The position numbers and the translations under genes were made by a program. Positions 14,996 through 62,731 of a DNA stretch of 64,000 bases are shown here, piece after piece (the stretch's first letter is position 1; every line of letters begins with the position of its first letter). The notes beneath the pieces were generated by a model. The model saw only the letters and a program-made list of their open reading frames with translations. It was not told the DNA's origin and searched no databases. This stretch comes from Moniliella sp. 'wahieum' (lineage: Eukaryota): contig RSEE01000112.1 in NCBI GenBank assembly GCA_003971905.1, positions 62,001-126,000 on the forward strand. The letters run 5' to 3'.

Positions 14996-16615
14996 TCATC
15001 CTGTCCCGCCCTCGCCCGGGTCCACCGTCTCCACCGACTGGATCAACCCCGCCGCCACCGTCTGGTGCCCGTCATGCATCACGAACCGCCCAAGCGACGC
15101 GAACTCGGCCGCCCCTCTCGACGCATACGGGGTGCGTCGGCACAAGCTGGATCAGCGCCGCTTCGCCCGACTCGAGACACGGCGGGGCCAGCGCGATCGT
15201 CTGTCCCGTCTTGCGGTCGAGCTTGGCCAGGATGCGCGTGAGCGTGCAGCGGACCTGCGCCGTGTGGCAGCTGAGCAGCGCACTCGAGCCCCGTCCGAAC
15301 GTGGTGTGCGGCTGCAGAAGGAGGAGGTGGGCGTGGAAGCTACGTGCTTCCCTTGGCGGGTCGATGGCCGGGTTGCCAACGACCGAGCCCGCACGGATGG
15401 TGGTGAGGGTTGGGATTGGGATAGGTAGTTGCTTCTGCCGCGTATTCTTCTGGCCTGCCAGCTGACGCAGCATCACCTCCACATGGTCCCCGGGCAACCC
15501 TTCGGGAAGAAGGAAGGGTGGCGCGCCGCCGTGATCGCATCGACGTGCAAACGCCCATTTCCCGGGGCCCAGGTGACCACCATGCCCTGGCGGAGCACGC
15601 CTGTTTCCACGCGCCCGTGGATCCGGACTCCGCCTCCGCGCTTTTCCACTTGCGCCTCCTGTACCGGAAGACGGAGCGGCGGTCGGTCGGACGTCGAGGC
15701 GGGTCCATAGCATCCAACGCATCCACCAGTGTCCTCCCCGAACGGTACGCGACCGGCGTCTCGGTTTGCCATCCTTCGTACCACGCCATCCCGCTCCCAC
15801 CACCAACCCCCTTGTCCCCCACATTCTCCCCGTCGACGCAGAGAGCGGGACAAAGGCGATGGATTCGCGGCGGAAGCCAACGCGGGCAAACAAGCGTGCG
15901 AGCCGGTGGGTGATCTGCGCAAACCGAGCCTTGGGATCGCACCCGGGCGAGATGGCATCCATCTTGTCACCGCTACAATCACTTGCCGCACGCCCAAGAC
16001 GAAGATCCGAATCACCCGCTCGCCAATCGACCCGTCCTCGCGCTGTCGTGCTCGACTTGCTCGGGGCTGGCAGCAGCGGAAACGACAAGCATGGCACAGT
16101 CTGCTTGTGAGATCGCAGCACACGTGCTCCAATCCCGCCCTGCTCATCTTCTCGCGTGTCCAGCAGCGTCACATAGTACTTGGCTGTCTCGAGCGGGTAC
16201 AGCATCGCTTGGTTCGCCTCCGGTTCGTGGTCTGCCTGCCCTTGCTCGTCCTCCCGCTCGCGTCGCTTGTTCTGCTCAGTTACGTGCTCAGGTCCCTGCT
16301 CTTGCTCTGCCCTAAGCCGGTCAAGCAACCGGGCATAGGGCAAGGAGCTTGGATCCACATGGTCCGTCTCGTGGCGCACTGGGTCCCCCGTCGGCTGCTC
16401 CACCGCGCCAGACTGGTACCCAAGCTGCGCAATCACGCTCGATTTGCCCGCCGCCGCCGCCGGACCGAGAACGACAACGCTCGCGGCGAGCTGCCTCGCC
16501 CGAGACGGGTTGGGTTGGTGGGTAGCGCGTTAGCCTCGCCCGACTCGACAGGTGAGGTGGGTAACGATCCACTCGGTCTCACAGGCGGGGGGGGACGTAC
16601 CTTGTACACCACCAT
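14996..16615 (-). CDS. Divergent eEF1A-like translational GTPase paralog with degenerate G motifs; intron about 16491-16600
   Basis: Spliced MVVYK|LAASVVVLGPAAAGKSSVIAQLGY, then YARLLDRLRAEQEQG, LETAKYYVTLLD, SQADCAMLVV, LGVRQVIVAV-KMD, FVPLSASTGENV, WYEGW, GRVETGVLRQGMVVTWAP, EGLPGDHV, SCHTAQVRC, KLDRKTG and LGRFVMHDGHQTVAAGLIQSV. All are colinear with eEF1A domains I-III. Confidence 0.85.
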
Positions 16616-17290
16616 CTGGGGCAAGGGAGGGATGGTGGTGGGTGCGATGAAGCAGATGGATGGCGGATGTGCTCTTACTACCTCCTTGAATCGTTAGTGA
16701 GTGCTTGGGAAGATGGCACCGACGCACCGACGCACCGACGAATGTTAATGACTGCGATGACTGCAATGACGTCGATGACGTGTCGATGACGTGTCGATGA
16801 CGATGATCATCGCTCCCTCACTAGACTGGCCTCAGGCCGGCCTCAGGCCTCACTAGTAAAGCGATTAACGCGAGACGACCGTGACCATCTATGACCCTCC
16901 TCGGACATGGCCGACTACGGAGTGTACTCAGATACTCATCCTGGCTTCTAACACTCAAGGCTTGATGATAGAGGAAAAGTACTCCTTGCAAGACCAAAGC
17001 CAGCGATGCGCGCTGGCCCTCAGTCACGTGCATTGTGGGAGGGGAGATGTGGCCACGTGACCGGCGCCATGCCCGACGCGTGTGATGCCGCTAGAGGCAC
17101 ACGGTGGGTGATCACCGCAGGGTGCGTATTGCAATTTCAGTCGCCCAGCGCGACGCGGCCAGCACTAGGGTTGGTAGGCGCCACGGCGCCAGTGTGGGGA
17201 CGCGGCGTCTTTATTTGCGGGCATCACGCGTCTCCTCCTCCTTCTGCCTCCTCCTCCTCCATCGGATGTGTGCGGGCGTGTCTGCTGCCA

Positions 17291-43447: not shown

Positions 43448-45264
43448 CTAGAGCCCCCCCGCCTTCTCGCCCACACACGCCGCCTCGCGCTCAAACACCA
43501 CCTGCCCCCCACCACCGTCGTCGTCACCTCCACCTCGGCCGCTGCGTCGCGTCCAGCGCGCGCGGGTCGCAGTCCAGGATGATAAAGTCCGCCAGGAAGC
43601 CCTCGGCCAGGCAGCCTTGTCCTCCTCCGAGTGCTCGCACCACGCCGAGTCGCGCGTCCAGGCCTGGATGGCGCGGTCGAGCGAGATGGCCTCCTGCGGC
43701 GAGTTGGGCTTGCCAGCCGCGTCCGCCGCAGCACCTGCCGCGCAATGGAGAAGAAGGGCCGCCACGACTCGGCCATGCTGCCCTCGTCGTCCGAGTGCCC
43801 GGAATGGGGAAGCCGTGCTGGACGAGCGTGCGTTGCAGCAGCCGAGCGTCCAGCGGCGTCTCGCCCACCGGCACGGGCTTCGCGTCCGGCCGGGCGGTTC
43901 GGGCAAGAATTCGTCCAGGTACACCCAGGCTGGTGTGACGAGCGGCGTGACCCCGATCCGCTTGGCACGCTCCAACATGCCCACCGTTGTTGGTCCCGCC
44001 TTCGCAGTTGCCCATGTGCTCGACGCGGTGACGCAGCGCCTTGGACGCCGGCGCGGGTGCTTCTGCGCGCGTTCAAACGCATCCAAGCACATTTCCTGGC
44101 CCTTGTCCCCGACGGCATGGATCAGCACTTGCCAGCCTTGTACGTGCGCTTGCGCCACAAACGCGTTCAGTTCGTCTGCCGATACTTTGGGCGAGCCAGT
44201 CAGTGGGTACGGTCGCCATACGGATCGGTGTACCGCACTGCTGCAATCCCATCGCCATCGAGAAACAGTTTCAGTGCGCCGATCCGAAGCCAGTCGTTGC
44301 CAAAGTTGGTGCGGAGACCCATGCCCGTCAAGAGAAAGTGGTCGTACGAGTCGACGATGGGCACCAGATGGTCGTCGCGATCGTGGCCCGACTCGGACTG
44401 ATCCGCCTGGTGGCCCGAGCAAAACACAATTCATACGCAACCGCACCGGCAGCCTGCCTTCGTCGGCCAACTCTTGGTACACCTTGATGTCCCTCGGCTG
44501 GGGGAAATCGCCAATCGTAGTCAGACCATAGGACGCCATCTCGAGCAACTGCGCATGCACCGCCTGTTTACGCTCCTCCATCGTCACCGCCGGCACGCGG
44601 CGCGACCAGAGGAAGCTGGCCTCTGGATACGGCCCGTCGGCACCCCGTGCTCGTCCCGCTCAATCGTCCCCCAGGCGGAAGGTCGTGTGGGTCAGAGCCT
44701 GCCTCGGTGCCGATTCCACTGAGCGTGAGCGCGAGCGAGTTGAGGTACTGGACGTGGATGCTCTCACTGACCACGACGGGGACGGTGGCTGCGACGTGGT
44801 CGAGCTGCGCGCGGGTGGGCATGACGGTGCCGGTGCCTGCGATGGCCACCACCCCTTTCCTGGCGTTTTCTCCTTCTCGCGCGCAGCCGCACCAATCTTG
44901 GCCAGGACCGCGTCCAAATCGGGCAGCGGCGGGCGACGCACATCCAGCTCTTCCGAACGGAAAGTGGCCATGTTGCCCAGATGAGTGTGCACGTCAATCA
45001 ACCCGGGCCAGACGGGCTTGTGCTGCGCATCCACCACCCGCGTCGCAGGACCGACAAGGCGCGCGCACCGGCACACGACCCCACTACACAATCCGTTCGT
45101 GCCGCACCGCCAGGGCTTCTGCGCCATACACGTACCCCCCTGGCGGTCTCGGTGAGGATGCGGCCGTTGAGCAGCACAAGGTCCGCGGCTTGGCGCGCGG
45201 CGCGGGCGAGCAGGCAAGGACGGACATGAGGGTGGATGTCCAGGAGCGGGGGGGTGGGGGACAT
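43448..45264 (-). CDS. Metal-dependent amidohydrolase (Amidohydro_3, YtcJ-like); no intron seen
   Basis: ADLVLLNGRILT, AEALAVRHERIV, PGLIDVHTH (HxH), SIHVQYLNSLAL, GLTTIGD, LRIGALKLFLDG, QVLIHAVGD, RVEH, GHSD, AISLDRAIQAWT, G.LAEGFLADFIILD and TVVGGQVVF. Confidence 0.9.
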
Positions 45265-46788
45265 GGAGGTGCGGGGGGGGGAGAGGAGCAGAGCGGGTGT
45301 AATAGATGGGGAGGTGCGTGGGTCCACCGACAGGGGCGCTTAGGGCGGCACAGCGAGGCTCGCACACGGCGAGGAGAAACGATGTGACGGCCACGGTCAC
45401 CCACCATCGCCCCCATCATGCATCCCTTCCATGCGTCCGCCCGCTTGCTCGGCCGCGCCAGACGCGGCGCCGCCCCAGGCCGCCCCAGGCCGCCCTGCCC
45501 CGCCGTTGCCGGCCGCTTTCATGGCACGTGACACTGCCCAGCCGCTGACGTAACCCAGGCGCTTCTCTTCGTTGTTGGCTAGGCGGTATAGACAGGAGGG
45601 CTCTTCTTGTCGCTCGGTGGTCCAGGCGAAGGTGTGTTCCTCCAAAGACAAAAACAAGGCATAGTCCACACAGAGGGGCGAAATGGAAATGGGGGGTCAC
45701 ATTGTCACATGTCATCAAGAAGGAGGTGGGCCGTCAGAGATACATTGAATAGTAGTACTGGGCGATATATAACTAGTGTCTCGGCAGTTGCCCAACCAGG
45801 GACCAGATCCCTCCGATACACTTGTTTCCCGCAGGAGAGCATTGTGCTCGGCAAGAGACACGAATGACAACCCGCCTCTCTGCTGTGTAGTACCATGTAA
45901 TTCACTACGCACTGCTGCCCCTCCGGCGGTCTGTCAAAGGAGATGAAATGGATGCTCGGGATCGAAAGGGAGGAAGGGAAGATGGCACCAATTCACAGAT
46001 ATATACCCAGCCAAAGGTCAACAGACCGCAAAGATACCGAGATGCCAAGGATGGGGGAACCCAAATGCGCTTCTTCCATCCAGGGGCAGAGCTTAACCGG
46101 AGCAGTCGGCATGCCTCATTAAACATTAATATCTAGGATCTTTCCAATGGCACGCGTCGCGCTGATCACCTGCCGGCAATTCGATCATGATGCATCTTGA
46201 TGGAATATGGAGACCCGACTGCGACTGAAAGAATAGGTAGCGAGCTTTGATACCTCTCTCTGGCTTTTTCGACGATGGGAACAAAGTATCAAAGAGGAGA
46301 AACAGGGTCAGTATACTGACAGTACTACTCAGTCATCCTCAAGAGAAGATATACGACTGTCACATACAAACCGTGACCAAGGTGTCCTCGCATGCGTGCA
46401 TCATGTCAGGTGTGAGGCCTGTGAGGGTGTAGTGCGACGCCAACTCGGCCCGTGACCGTGTGGTCCACTCTACGACCTCCTACTACGGCAGGATCCCAAG
46501 TTCCTTAGGAGTTCCAGGCTCCCATCAGACCAGCCTCTCAAAACAGGGGTGCCGTGCACCACCAAAGAATCAAATATACCAATCGACAAAACTGCCACCA
46601 CCGAGAATGGCACAGCATACCTCTACCTAACCCCGCCTTGACCGCCCCCCAGAAGGCGGCAGTACGGAGAAAAGGTTGAATGGTGCAGGGCCAGCATTAT
46701 TCAAGGGACGAAGAGAACAAAGGATGCAAAGTAGGCAATGTGGCCTGGTGCCTCTTGCAGTCCGGGGAGGGGGGGAGGGCAAGTACAA

Positions 46789-60512: not shown

Positions 60513-60972
60513 CTCCTTTTTGGTGGGCTTCTTGTCTTCTCGGGTTCCGGTTGAGGGCGTGCTGCACCTAGCGGTGTTGGTTCTTTCTATTGGAGCTCGC
60601 ACCGACAAGGGATCTCTAGCCATGGCAGGGGAGGGAAGAGCAGAGCAGGGAAGAGCAGGGCAGGGAGCAAGCATGCCAAGTGCGTCGCTTCCGTCCTCTC
60701 ATTGATTGCAATAAGCTCGTGCTTTGTCTTTTTTATCCACCTTGTCAGGTGGCCTTTTATATGAGCTTCGAACCTCGCCAGCCCAATGTATCCATACCCG
60801 TCTTGCCGCCCCTCATTACCCCATGCCAATTGAATACGACGACTTGACGCTAGGAAAAGCGGGGTGGGCCGACGAACGTAGCAAAACGGCCGGCCCCCTG
60901 AGGGAGGGATCCCACGTGCAGCGGGTTGCATGCTACCAACCACTAGGCAAGACGAGTAAGCAAGCCCCACGG

Positions 60973-62312
60973 TTAGGTCACGGGGGACGGTGGAGCCTGC
61001 TGAGGTGGTCCCTCTGGGCGGCTCGGCCGGTTTGGACGATCCCTCACCTGCAGCAGGAAGTGCAACAGCGGTGGCGTGGGGGCGGATGGAATCCGTTTGG
61101 GGCGCCCGCCTTGCTGGTCGGCGTCGTACGCGGCTGCCTGTAGCGTGCGCGCTCGGTATCGTACCACGTAGTGAACAGTATCGTGTTGTCCTTTTGAGCC
61201 GACGGGCGTAGCAGGTCCACGGCCACCATGTCTTCTCCTTTGTGTCGTTACACCAGGATTGGTATGCGGCGCTGGTCCGAGCGAGATGTTCAGTGGGGAT
61301 GTGGGTGCCGTGGTATGCCTGGAGCAAGGGGCGAACGTCAGGGACGTGAGTGATGCCTACTGCCTCCAAGAAGGGAAGGTACCCAATCAAGTCCCGGTCC
61401 TCTCGCTCCGCCTTCCACGGGGGGAGTAAAATGGCATTGTCCTCCACGTGCGAGATGGACTCGGGATTGGTATCGAGGAAGATGACTTTGGCAGGATCGC
61501 GGTTGAGCGCTTGGAGGTCTTTGACCACACGTCCATCGTCCAGTGTGCGACAAGATTCCTTGAACAATGTGTAGGTCACGAAGCGGCGGTCGGGATCGAG
61601 GGCGTCGAGGATCGGGGCAACGGCCAAGGAAGGCTGGGTGGTGTAGAGGACAATTTCATAAAACTGGCTCAGGTAGCCCAAAAAGTACTCGACGCCAGGC
61701 CGTTTGGCGGTGCGCCAGCCGTGTTGGCGTGTCCACCAGCTCCAGGTGAGCAAGCCATCGAGGTCGATGACCAGGGTGTACGGACGGCCGTACGGCGGCG
61801 GCAGCGGATCCGGAAGCAATTGCTCCCACAGCGGCGCGTGCGCCTCCTCCCGCATCCAGGCCAAGCGCGTGTACAGCCGACCGTACCACCACTCCTGCTG
61901 CCACGCAGGCACGTCGCGCCGCACCACCCGCGTGCTTCTTGCTCGTCGTACGGCACGGTCAATCCATACGCGAAATAGCCCAGCATAACCACCGAGGACA
62001 GCAGGAAAAAGCGCACGCGCGCCGTGTGCCGCAGCTCGGCTTTGGTCGGCACCTTGCCCTCGTCCGCCGCCGACGTGCTGGACGCCGGCCGGGCGGCAGC
62101 AGAGGGCGGGGTAGACACGGCGGACGCAGGCGCGGGGCGGATGCGGGGGGGGAGGGGGCGGATGCGGGCTTGCGGGTGCCAGCGCGCCGCCGGGGGCGGT
62201 GGGGTATCGGGGGGGGAGGCGGATGGGGCGCGGCCCGCACGCCGAGGCTAGTGTGGAGCAGGCGGGCGCGGGGCAACACAGCAGCGGCAGTGCGCGTGGA
62301 AGGCGGCAGCAT
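60973..62312 (-). CDS. TIM50: Mitochondrial inner-membrane translocase subunit Tim50 (FCP1/NIF homology domain)
   Basis: Presequence, one TM segment (FFLLSSVVMLGYFAYG), LLPDPLPPPYGRPYTLVIDLDGLL, HGWRTAKRPGVEYFLGYLSQFYEIVLYTTQ, VKDLQALNRD and DVRPLL. Confidence 0.94.
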
Positions 62313-62731
62313 CGGCGCGGTGGCGTGCTCAGCCCGCAGCAGCCCCGCTTGTCCCCGCGTCGGCTGTCGGATCGAGGCAGGTGGTGGGCTCAGCCGTGGG
62401 TGTGGGTAGTCTGCGGCGGTAGCCGGCGATTAGGCGCTGCGGCCATCCGCCTCGGAACATTCGGCCCCAATTCCGACCCAAACCATCACGTGATCCTGCG
62501 GCGGCTGCAGCGAGCGGAGCGGCGCGCGGCCAAGAACGAAAGCCAGCACGCGACGCGACGCGGCGTGGCGGTGACGACCACCACCGCAACTACCACCACT
62601 ACTACCACCGCCATTACCACCACCACCGCACATTACCACCACCACCGCCATTACCACCACCACGCCATTACCACCACCACCGCCATTACCACCACCACCA
62701 CCCCTCCTCCCCCCCCCCGCTCTGCCGCACC

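Follow-up and report, generated by a model that had tools for sequence, protein, structure and literature searches.

Does a locus that resembles eEF1A in all three domains, but in which the GTPase motifs are degenerate and the reading frame is broken repeatedly, represent a functioning gene, a pseudogene or an artefact of the assembly? This question is raised by an eEF1A-like locus on the minus strand of a 64,000-nucleotide stretch of contig RSEE01000112.1 (the whole stretch is hereafter called the window, and all positions are counted from its first nucleotide). The locus is best explained as an intact, selected gene, a lineage-specific duplicate of fungal-type eEF1A that has an intron and probably codes for a hydrolysis-dead paralog; judged from the sequence, we give this explanation about an even chance of being right. 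The first-pass annotation had proposed a lineage-specific eEF1A duplicate and a candidate pseudo-GTPase, with putative roles in actin or tRNA binding or in mRNA surveillance. The duplicate with a degenerate GTPase centre was upheld, and the functioning pseudo-GTPase appears plausible.

Structure of the locus

The limits of the locus (Table 1) had been given exactly in the first-pass annotation, with an ATG and a TGA at the two ends on the minus strand. Also the intron claimed from the pattern GTACGT...GCTAAC...CAG was present, and the pattern had only this single match in the 64-kb window, against 0.01 expected by chance. Its GCTAAC branch lies 40 nt ahead of the intron end, and an intron of the neighbouring chitin synthase gene (approximately 28427–28344) likewise has GTACGT...CAG signals. 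The intron is needed to reach the start codon, because the frame of exon 2 includes no ATG upstream of the P-loop. A processed (retro-copied) pseudogene was rejected, since the ATG can be reached only across an intron that has full splice signals; the locus showed neither an A-run nor a flanking repeat.

Instead of the nearly continuous reading assumed before, with one base missing at G4, seven frame changes were found in exon 2, near positions 16138, 16058, 15966, 15820, 15680, 15510 and 15116. The eight reading pieces which they delimit abut or overlap, leaving no space for introns between them. Six of the breaks consist of one missing base and one of an extra base, and the sequence on either side of each aligns to eEF1A without gaps. 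The start codon and the splice signals are intact, and the stop codon is at the homologous C-terminal place. The read-through product is best explained as a protein of approximately 505 residues, with a predicted eEF1A three-domain fold. A 485-residue open frame (15072–16529) also extends over the locus and follows the true frame in part only.

Table 1. Positions of the eEF1A-like locus and its parts in the window, listed in the direction of reading.
Feature	Position	Strand	Remarks
eEF1A-like locus	14996..16615	minus	ATG 16615-16613, TGA 14998-14996
Exon 1	16601..16615	minus	ATG GTG GTG TAC AAG (MVVYK); earliest ATG in its open frame
Intron, phase 0, 110 nt	16491..16600	minus	5' GTACGT, branch GCTAAC, 3' CAG (16491-16493)
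Exon 2, eEF1A-like coding sequence (G domain, domain II, domain III)	14996..16490	minus	seven single-base frame breaks; TGA 14996-14998
Reading piece	16490-16143	minus	frame 0
Reading piece	16143-16015	minus	frame 2
Reading piece	16042-15959	minus	frame 1
Reading piece	15971-15828	minus	frame 0
Reading piece	15837-15673	minus	frame 2
Reading piece	15688-15512	minus	frame 1
Reading piece	15530-15108	minus	frame 0
Reading piece	15112-14999	minus	frame 1
G1/P-loop GPAAAAGKS	16440..16466	minus	four Ala; Lys and Ser kept
Switch I: AEQEQG, then charged insert PEHVTEQNKRREREDEQGQADHEPEANQA replacing ITIDIA	16206..16310	minus	in frame, no splice signals
G3/switch II region: ETAKYYVTLLD, remodelled, RDW..SQADCA	16093..16190	minus	one frame break near 16138
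G4: LGVRQVIVAV, two-base remnant AC, then KMD (xKMD)	15948..15997	minus	break near 15966
G5 FVPLSA(S), SA position	15834..15854	minus	just before break near 15820
WYEGWQTETPVAYRSGRTL, holds 12-residue insert common to animal and fungal eEF1A	15727..15783	minus	alignment
Domain II core PLRLPVQ..GRVETG (15599-15616)..VVTWAP	15512..15679	minus	breaks either side, near 15680 and 15510
RQLAGQKNTRQKQLPIPIPTLTT, 16-residue net insert in domain II loop	15399..15467	minus	in frame, open; no usable 3' splice site
Domain III: SCHTAQ, KLDRKTG, PVCVE, LGRFVMHD	15038..15341	minus	Pfam GTP-eEF1A_C

No second copy of eEF1A, a canonical TEF1 included, was found within the window. The region between 12 and 19 kb of the window included no Rfam family, and the open reading frames (ORFs) antisense to the locus or flanking it had no Pfam match. 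Upstream of the start codon, the region 16716–16849, which is shared with a divergently oriented cyclin gene, includes several short perfect tandem repeats (GCACCGAC x3, GTCGATGACGT x2.9 and GGCCTCAGGCC x2).

Derivation from eEF1A

A frameshift-aware alignment was colinear through the three domains, with 129 of 340 positions identical to animal-type eEF1A and 135 of 321 to fungal eEF1A, and the colinearity reported earlier thus holds at approximately 40% identity. The best local matches of all eight pieces were canonical eEF1A-type proteins. All the signatures listed in the first-pass annotation were recovered (ETAKYYVT, SQADCA, LGVRQVIVAV, GRVETG, CHTA, KLDRKTG and LGRF).

Against PDB the C-terminal piece (15108–15530, hereafter the C piece) matched eEF1A with an expectation value (E) of 5e-18 and archaeal EF1A with 6e-14, while the values for HBS1L and eRF3 were 1.9e-4 and 6e-3, respectively. 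For the N-terminal piece (the N piece) phmmer gave an E of 1.6e-5 against eEF1A and of 0.16 against Hbs1. Domain III was recognised by the Pfam profiles GTP-eEF1A_C (PF22594; E 1.6e-16, 61 bits against a cut-off of 27) and GTP_EFTU_D3 (PF03143; 38.7 bits against a cut-off of 27). Positions 1–76 of the GTP-eEF1A_C profile are in one frame and positions 78–101 in the next, which places the break near 15116 inside domain III.

The AlphaFold2 (AF2) model of the longest in-frame C-terminal stretch (15117–15509) had a predicted local distance difference test score (pLDDT) of 80.9. In the Foldseek comparison of this model with PDB, yeast and mammalian eEF1A led the list (top match 5o8w_A, E 1.3e-7), followed by archaeal EF1A, eRF3, Hbs1, GTPBP1 and EF-Tu. 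The look-alikes of the C piece in the ESM Atlas were generic eEF1A_C clusters only.

After WYxG the locus includes a 12-residue insert that is present also in the fungal and animal rows of the alignment, while the plant rows have a gap of 12 columns; in PMC3938643 it is named as an opisthokont eEF1A insert. In the MAFFT alignment 13 residues stand ahead of the P-loop Gly, as in eEF1A, which confirms the absence of an N-terminal extension noted earlier. Because this insert is present and the extension absent, homology and the predicted fold indicate that the locus descends from fungal-type eEF1A and not from Hbs1, Ski7 or eRF3. Membership in these three families was rejected on the lack of a long N-terminal extension, the lower PDB scores and the lower Foldseek rank. 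As regards EFL, the observations that bear on it are the eEF1A-type best matches of the eight pieces and the presence of the eEF1A-specific insert. The derivation from eEF1A rather than from Hbs1, Ski7 or eRF3 had been proposed before, and it is borne out by the E-values, the fold ranking and the 12-residue insert.

State of the GTPase motifs

The canonical nucleotide motifs G1 GHVDSGKS, G2 RGITI, G3 DAPGH and G4 NKMD do not have their canonical form at the locus, which retains GKS, xKMD and SA. The first-pass annotation had rightly described G1 as degenerate, but it had read three alanines (GPAAAGKS) where there are four, and the motif is one residue longer than GHVDSGKS and the Walker A spacing. 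The residues PAAAAG are encoded by a perfect (CCG)5 repeat (16448–16462).

In switch I, EQEQG had been described as followed by a charged insert of about 30 residues without ITI. The insert is present, and its length is 24 residues in the MAFFT alignment or 29 when counted from EQEQG to MLYPLET. It is charged and of low complexity, and the residues expected to be ITIDIA are replaced or split. Domain II includes another insert, rich in Pro and Ile. Retained introns were considered for both inserts and rejected, neither having a usable pair of splice sites.

Following YYVTLLD, the path continues as TREDEQ, then the break, and then RDW...SQADCA. A D-x-x-G can be read in this path with no His next to it, and no His follows the Gly in any frame of the path. 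The exact reading of G3, which spans the frame break near 16138, is uncertain. The earlier claim that no APGH and no His codon follow LLD was correct for the path, but a His codon is found nearby: the bases coding for VTLLD-T read C-D-A-A-G-H in another frame (16173–16156), continuing with ARR and a TGA stop. This nearly perfect G3 motif at the expected place is most simply a coincidence, other origins being less likely. One such origin, a 10-nt tandem repeat that collapsed and left this motif behind, was set aside as less likely, as an estimate from codon frequencies favours coincidence and the TGA would enter the frame. The earlier reading of G4 as probably NKMD with one base missing agrees with the frame break found there; the residue ahead of KMD would be Asn, Thr or Asp if one base were added beside a like base.

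The degeneracy of G1, of switch I and at the catalytic His is mostly within clean in-frame sequence. The remaining GKS, KMD and SA would still permit nucleotide binding. In EF-Tu and eEF1A, ribosome-activated hydrolysis depends on the catalytic His, and by analogy this step should be lost in the product of the locus. The same motifs could also belong to a translational GTPase that is unorthodox but still active, being specialised for elongation or decoding and able to hydrolyse GTP in spite of its non-canonical motifs. Besides GKS, xKMD and SA, also GRVETG, CHTA and LGRF of domains II and III are kept, and DEQG would become readable if the base missing near 16138 belonged to the G run. We nevertheless consider an active enzyme improbable, as no His follows the Gly of G3, the P-loop is too long by one residue, switch I is split where the Thr of G2 is situated, and 153 of the 273 universally invariant eEF1A columns are changed.

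Selection on the coding sequence

The path through the pieces included no stops in 493 codons, whereas 17 were counted when these segments were read in the other two frames. Neutral evolution under the Hasegawa–Kishino–Yano (HKY) model was simulated in 300 runs, starting from a back-translation of a proxy ancestor rich in G and C at third codon positions and continuing to the observed identity of 39.4% (approximately 0.46 substitutions per site). The simulated sequences had a mean of 7.9 stops and a minimum of one, and none of the runs was stop-free. The mean BLOSUM62 score of the mismatches was −0.02 in the locus and −0.68 ± 0.10 under neutrality, and none of the 300 runs reached the value of the locus. 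The provisos are that the ancestor is a proxy and that the alignment of the locus had been optimised, a treatment for which the simulated sequences, aligned from the outset, had no need.

The codon usage showed a coding signature. The GC contents of the first, second and third codon positions were 0.72, 0.51 and 0.77. The log-odds per codon were +0.14 bits for the in-frame reading, with positive values in seven of the eight pieces, and −0.32 and −0.37 for the two readings out of frame. This codon signature was stronger than in three of the neighbours and in non-coding DNA. The codon bias of the locus is modest, which suggests low expression.

Because the path is free of stops and the replacements are more conservative than neutral ones, most of the divergence of the locus occurred as a protein, under protein-level selection. 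The best explanation of the sequence would be divergence under purifying selection at the protein level, though not under the site-specific constraints of eEF1A itself.

Frame breaks and the quality of the assembly

The locus is situated among ordinary fungal genes, which include an aminotransferase, an ERCC4 nuclease, an SNase, a B-type cyclin, a RING protein and Mpv17, and further a class V chitin synthase with a myosin head, cytochrome b5 and DEK_C, eIF5A, an amidohydrolase, a sedolisin, a G-patch protein, DnaJ and TIM50. Several of them are broken as well. The Chitin_synth_2 profile, the pieces of which reach 1e-41 to 1e-43, is divided among seven ORFs; at five junctions the profile is contiguous, with the DNA contiguous or overlapping and no space for an intron, and one junction has an 83-nt intron. 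Contiguous frame-break junctions were found also in Myosin_head (two), Cyclin_N (one) and the aminotransferase (two). The cyclin box, for example, reads ...ETLF, is one base short at a TTTT run, and continues as LAVNLIDR.... Looked at base by base, the junctions in the neighbours look like single-base errors.

A Viterbi frame tracker based on codon usage was trained on the neighbours and applied with the same penalty to the locus and the neighbours; it rediscovered the known breaks. For the neighbours, which comprise 16.15 kb of coding sequence, the tracker counted 34 switches (2.1 per kb), some of which will be introns; for the 1.49 kb of the locus it counted four (2.7 per kb). The 5.6-kb chitin synthase/myosin gene had 15 switches (2.7 per kb), TIM50 four (2.9 per kb) and the amidohydrolase five. 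One of those in TIM50, near 61215, was confirmed when a homolog was aligned by tblastn, despite an uninterrupted 600-residue open frame (60590–62389, minus strand). A missing base accounted for 23 of the 34 neighbour switches, compared with the six of seven breaks at the locus. Homopolymer runs of at least three bases occurred within 12 nt of five of the seven breaks, but as such runs are present in 72% of the 25-nt windows of the locus, this is not informative.

We conclude that the assembly carries approximately 2–3 single-base insertion or deletion (indel) errors per kb of coding sequence. Since conserved housekeeping neighbours are broken likewise and at a similar density, the seven breaks of the locus are most likely single-base assembly indels. 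They occur at the rate expected of assembly errors, and are useless as evidence either for or against a pseudogene. Gene calls from contig RSEE01000112.1 need polishing first, and the earlier call for polishing was apt, single-base frame errors being found throughout the window. Examples of such sites are 29185, 29056, 28877, 28590, 28281, 32250, 31866, 18183, 2315 and 61215. The GC content of the window is 61%, and chance alone produces long open frames in such DNA, which conceal errors. Essential genes (class V chitin synthase/myosin, B-type cyclin, TIM50, aminotransferase) have the appearance of pseudogenes. The practical lesson is that where an assembly is rich in GC and full of indels, whether a gene is alive or dead can be told neither from long open frames nor from frameshifts.

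In an assembly so visibly prone to errors, the locus might also be no feature of the organism at all, but a product of contamination, of a chimeric contig or of divergence made by errors. This seems very unlikely, because the errors in the neighbours are indels and not substitutions, and the neighbouring domains score strongly. Furthermore, the locus shares the composition, codon usage and splice signals of the window and is flanked by ordinary fungal genes.

Relatives and host lineage

The HMMER search with the C piece covered 1.84 billion cluster representatives and produced 572 matches at E ≤ 1e-3, none of them at E ≤ 1e-30. The top matches were mis-predicted fragments of ordinary fungal eEF1A with approximately 39% identity. 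The highest identity over the full domain III was 47% (P0004), and the lack of any public match above this value agrees with the lineage-specific duplicate proposed at first. The N and C pieces were also submitted to word-index searches, which covered 5.8 billion clusters and found nothing.

Two of the public representatives, P0029 and P0106, resemble the locus in being full-length eEF1A-like proteins with lost nucleotide motifs (no GKS P-loop, DxxGH or NKxD). They differ from it in their low identity to the C piece, only 32–35% (P0106 approximately 32%), and P0106 also in lacking the 12-residue insert. In a quick maximum likelihood tree P0106 was paired with the locus, which forms a long branch, with a Shimodaira–Hasegawa-like approximate likelihood ratio test (SH-aLRT) value of 96. 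The approximately unbiased (AU) test did not reject the grouping of the locus with the fungal eEF1A clade (p-AU 0.27), and the pairing with P0106 is probably due to long-branch attraction. Degenerate proteins derived from eEF1A may be commoner than the searched literature suggests.

The TIM50 of the window was closest to proteins of Tilletiaria, Testicularia, Jaminaea, Ustilago, Pseudozyma, Violaceomyces and Malassezia, with identities of only 44–60%; for the first five of these genera the identities were 48–60%. The host is thus probably an unsampled lineage of Ustilaginomycotina (Basidiomycota), which would explain the lack of orthologs.

In PMC3938643, eEF1A is described as decaying in lineages that have EFL, for example in Allomyces macrogynus, and the uniform, unconstrained-looking divergence of the locus resembles that case. 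A decaying eEF1A relic in a lineage switched to EFL is still hardly to be expected here, given the TIM50 that is nearest to Ustilaginomycotina proteins, the conservative replacements and the absence of stops. EFL is not known from Dikarya.

Intact gene or recent pseudogene

A duplicate that diverged for long as a coding paralog and is now a pseudogene would also account for a stop-free, conservatively changed sequence, if some of the seven breaks were real. We consider a recent death of this kind possible, though rather doubtful. Several observations weigh against an intact gene, and the first of these concern the breaks themselves. The Pfam-visible breaks in the neighbours number 10 in 8.9 kb, which leads to an expectation of 1.4–1.7 for the locus against the seven found in 1.5 kb (Poisson P approximately 0.001), and by the sensitive method the locus has the densest cluster of breaks. 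The like-for-like tracker takes away most of this excess, but the break density of 2.7–4.0 per kb is still at the upper end, and one or more of the breaks could be real. A microsatellite is situated in the P-loop, and the inserts of switch I and domain II are of low complexity.

Also the pattern of conservation fits a dead copy. Invariant eEF1A columns were kept in 120 of 273 cases (44%) and columns variable outside fungi in 26 of 73 (36%), so that the invariant sites were not preferentially kept (Fisher p = 0.23). The identity was uniform over the three domains (37, 42 and 42%; p = 0.58), as decay would also produce. The codon log-odds were below those of most neighbours, and no ortholog was present in the public protein sets searched (1.84 and 5.8 billion clusters). 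The neutral simulation covers the whole divergence, and by our estimate approximately its last third could have been neutral without the absence of stops being surprising. Further, neither GTP_EFTU nor GTP_EFTU_D2 of Pfam was matched at E ≤ 0.01 by any of six frame-broken pieces, each of only 28–116 residues, and for the in-frame piece at the N-terminus AF2 produced a model too poor for use (pLDDT 61, predicted template modelling score 0.40).

On the other hand, the tracker densities are comparable in essential neighbours, namely the chitin synthase/myosin gene and TIM50. All seven breaks are of exactly one base with gapless flanks, which would fit assembly errors better than a natural spectrum of indels. 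There is no stop on the path, and the start codon, splice signals and stop codon are intact. The excess of frameshifts was withdrawn as proof of a pseudogene after the like-for-like comparison with the tracker and the TIM50 check, the count based on Pfam only being insensitive.

According to the explanation preferred here, an intact and selected gene, a fungal-type eEF1A gene would have been duplicated in the lineage, and the copy, which has an intron, would have diverged under protein-level purifying selection to approximately 40% identity in each domain. The P-loop would have been replaced by the microsatellite-encoded PAAAAG(KS), one residue too long, and switch I interrupted by the charged insert of approximately 24–29 residues. 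The catalytic His of DxxGH would be absent, with GKS, xKMD and SA retained. Such a protein presumably could not go through the GTPase cycle that the ribosome triggers during aminoacyl-tRNA delivery. If active at all, it would act as a hydrolysis-dead pseudo-GTPase with the eEF1A fold, the surfaces of domains II and III possibly acting as a binding module outside canonical elongation.

A wider proposal is that a fungus of Dikarya maintains, under purifying selection, a previously undescribed subfamily of eEF1A-derived pseudo-GTPases, parallel to the origin of Ski7 from Hbs1 and with a role other than one in aminoacyl-tRNA delivery. We put this forward tentatively and with more doubt than conviction. 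No eEF1A-derived pseudo-GTPase or divergent eEF1A paralog in Basidiomycota or Dikarya was found in the full-text literature searched, while the supplementary tables of PMC3938643 and PMC4342817 may hold more.

Further observations on neighbouring genes

The chitin synthase gene (27253 to approximately 33000, minus strand) includes an N-terminal myosin head, a cytochrome b5-like domain, Chitin_synth_2 and a C-terminal DEK_C. None of the ORFs of at least 60 residues matched positions 1–153 of the myosin profile.

The gene for eIF5A (minus strand) leaves its frame at approximately 42582, just past the part matched by Pfam (...IVSAM, then unrelated residues). Its open frame has no upstream ATG, and a short first exon together with a further frame error is likely.

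The two amidohydrolase ORFs 44663–45415 and 43451–44659 (minus strand) are in the same frame and separated by one stop codon at 44660–44662. The tracker found four to six switches in this gene. The cause could be an error, an intron or a real lesion.

Comparison with known systems

Among eukaryotic proteins eEF1A is one of the most conserved. According to PMC4342817, each of its known ancient offshoots, eRF3, Hbs1, EFL and, by way of Hbs1, Ski7, stands for a function newly gained in translation or in the surveillance of mRNA. The EF1 subfamilies listed there are eEF1A, EFL, Hbs1, Ski7, eRF3, eRF3-2, GTPBP1/2, eIF2-gamma and SelB, and that list includes no inactive fungal subfamily derived from eEF1A (PMC4342817). 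If the explanation preferred here is true, the conversion of a translational GTPase into a non-catalytic binding protein could be followed in an offshoot that is young and confined to one lineage, and that still shows protein-level constraint after the loss of the hydrolysis machinery.

The nearest published phenomenon is that of the degrading eEF1A copies of Atkinson et al. 2014 (PMC3938643). The locus is like these copies in its high divergence, the changes at important sites and the long branch. The degrading copies are tied to the presence of EFL (PMC3938643), whereas the host of the locus is Dikarya-like. The replacements at the locus are conservative and its path is free of stops, which speaks against a simple loss of constraint.

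From canonical fungal eEF1A (TEF1) the locus has kept the order of the domains, the approximate length, the short N-terminus and the 12-residue insert. It has also kept KYYVT, SQADCA, LGVxQ-IVA, KMD, PLRLP, GRVETG, CHTA, DR+TG and LGRF, and the fold of its domain III matches canonical eEF1A best. The identity is only approximately 39–42%, however, while the canonical plant, animal and fungal sequences used here agree with each other at 273 aligned columns. The locus differs from them further by the Ala-rich P-loop longer by one residue, the split switch I, the lack of the catalytic His, the 16-residue insert of domain II and the modest codon bias.

As a precedent the first-pass annotation had named Ski7, a translational GTPase paralog that has degenerate catalytic motifs and has kept the fold. 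On domain III of the locus, Hbs1 and eRF3 are 13–15 orders of magnitude worse than eEF1A, and in the fold search they are lower. The locus differs from Ski7, Hbs1 and eRF3 in that it is derived from eEF1A itself, with the eEF1A-specific insert and without an N-terminal extension.

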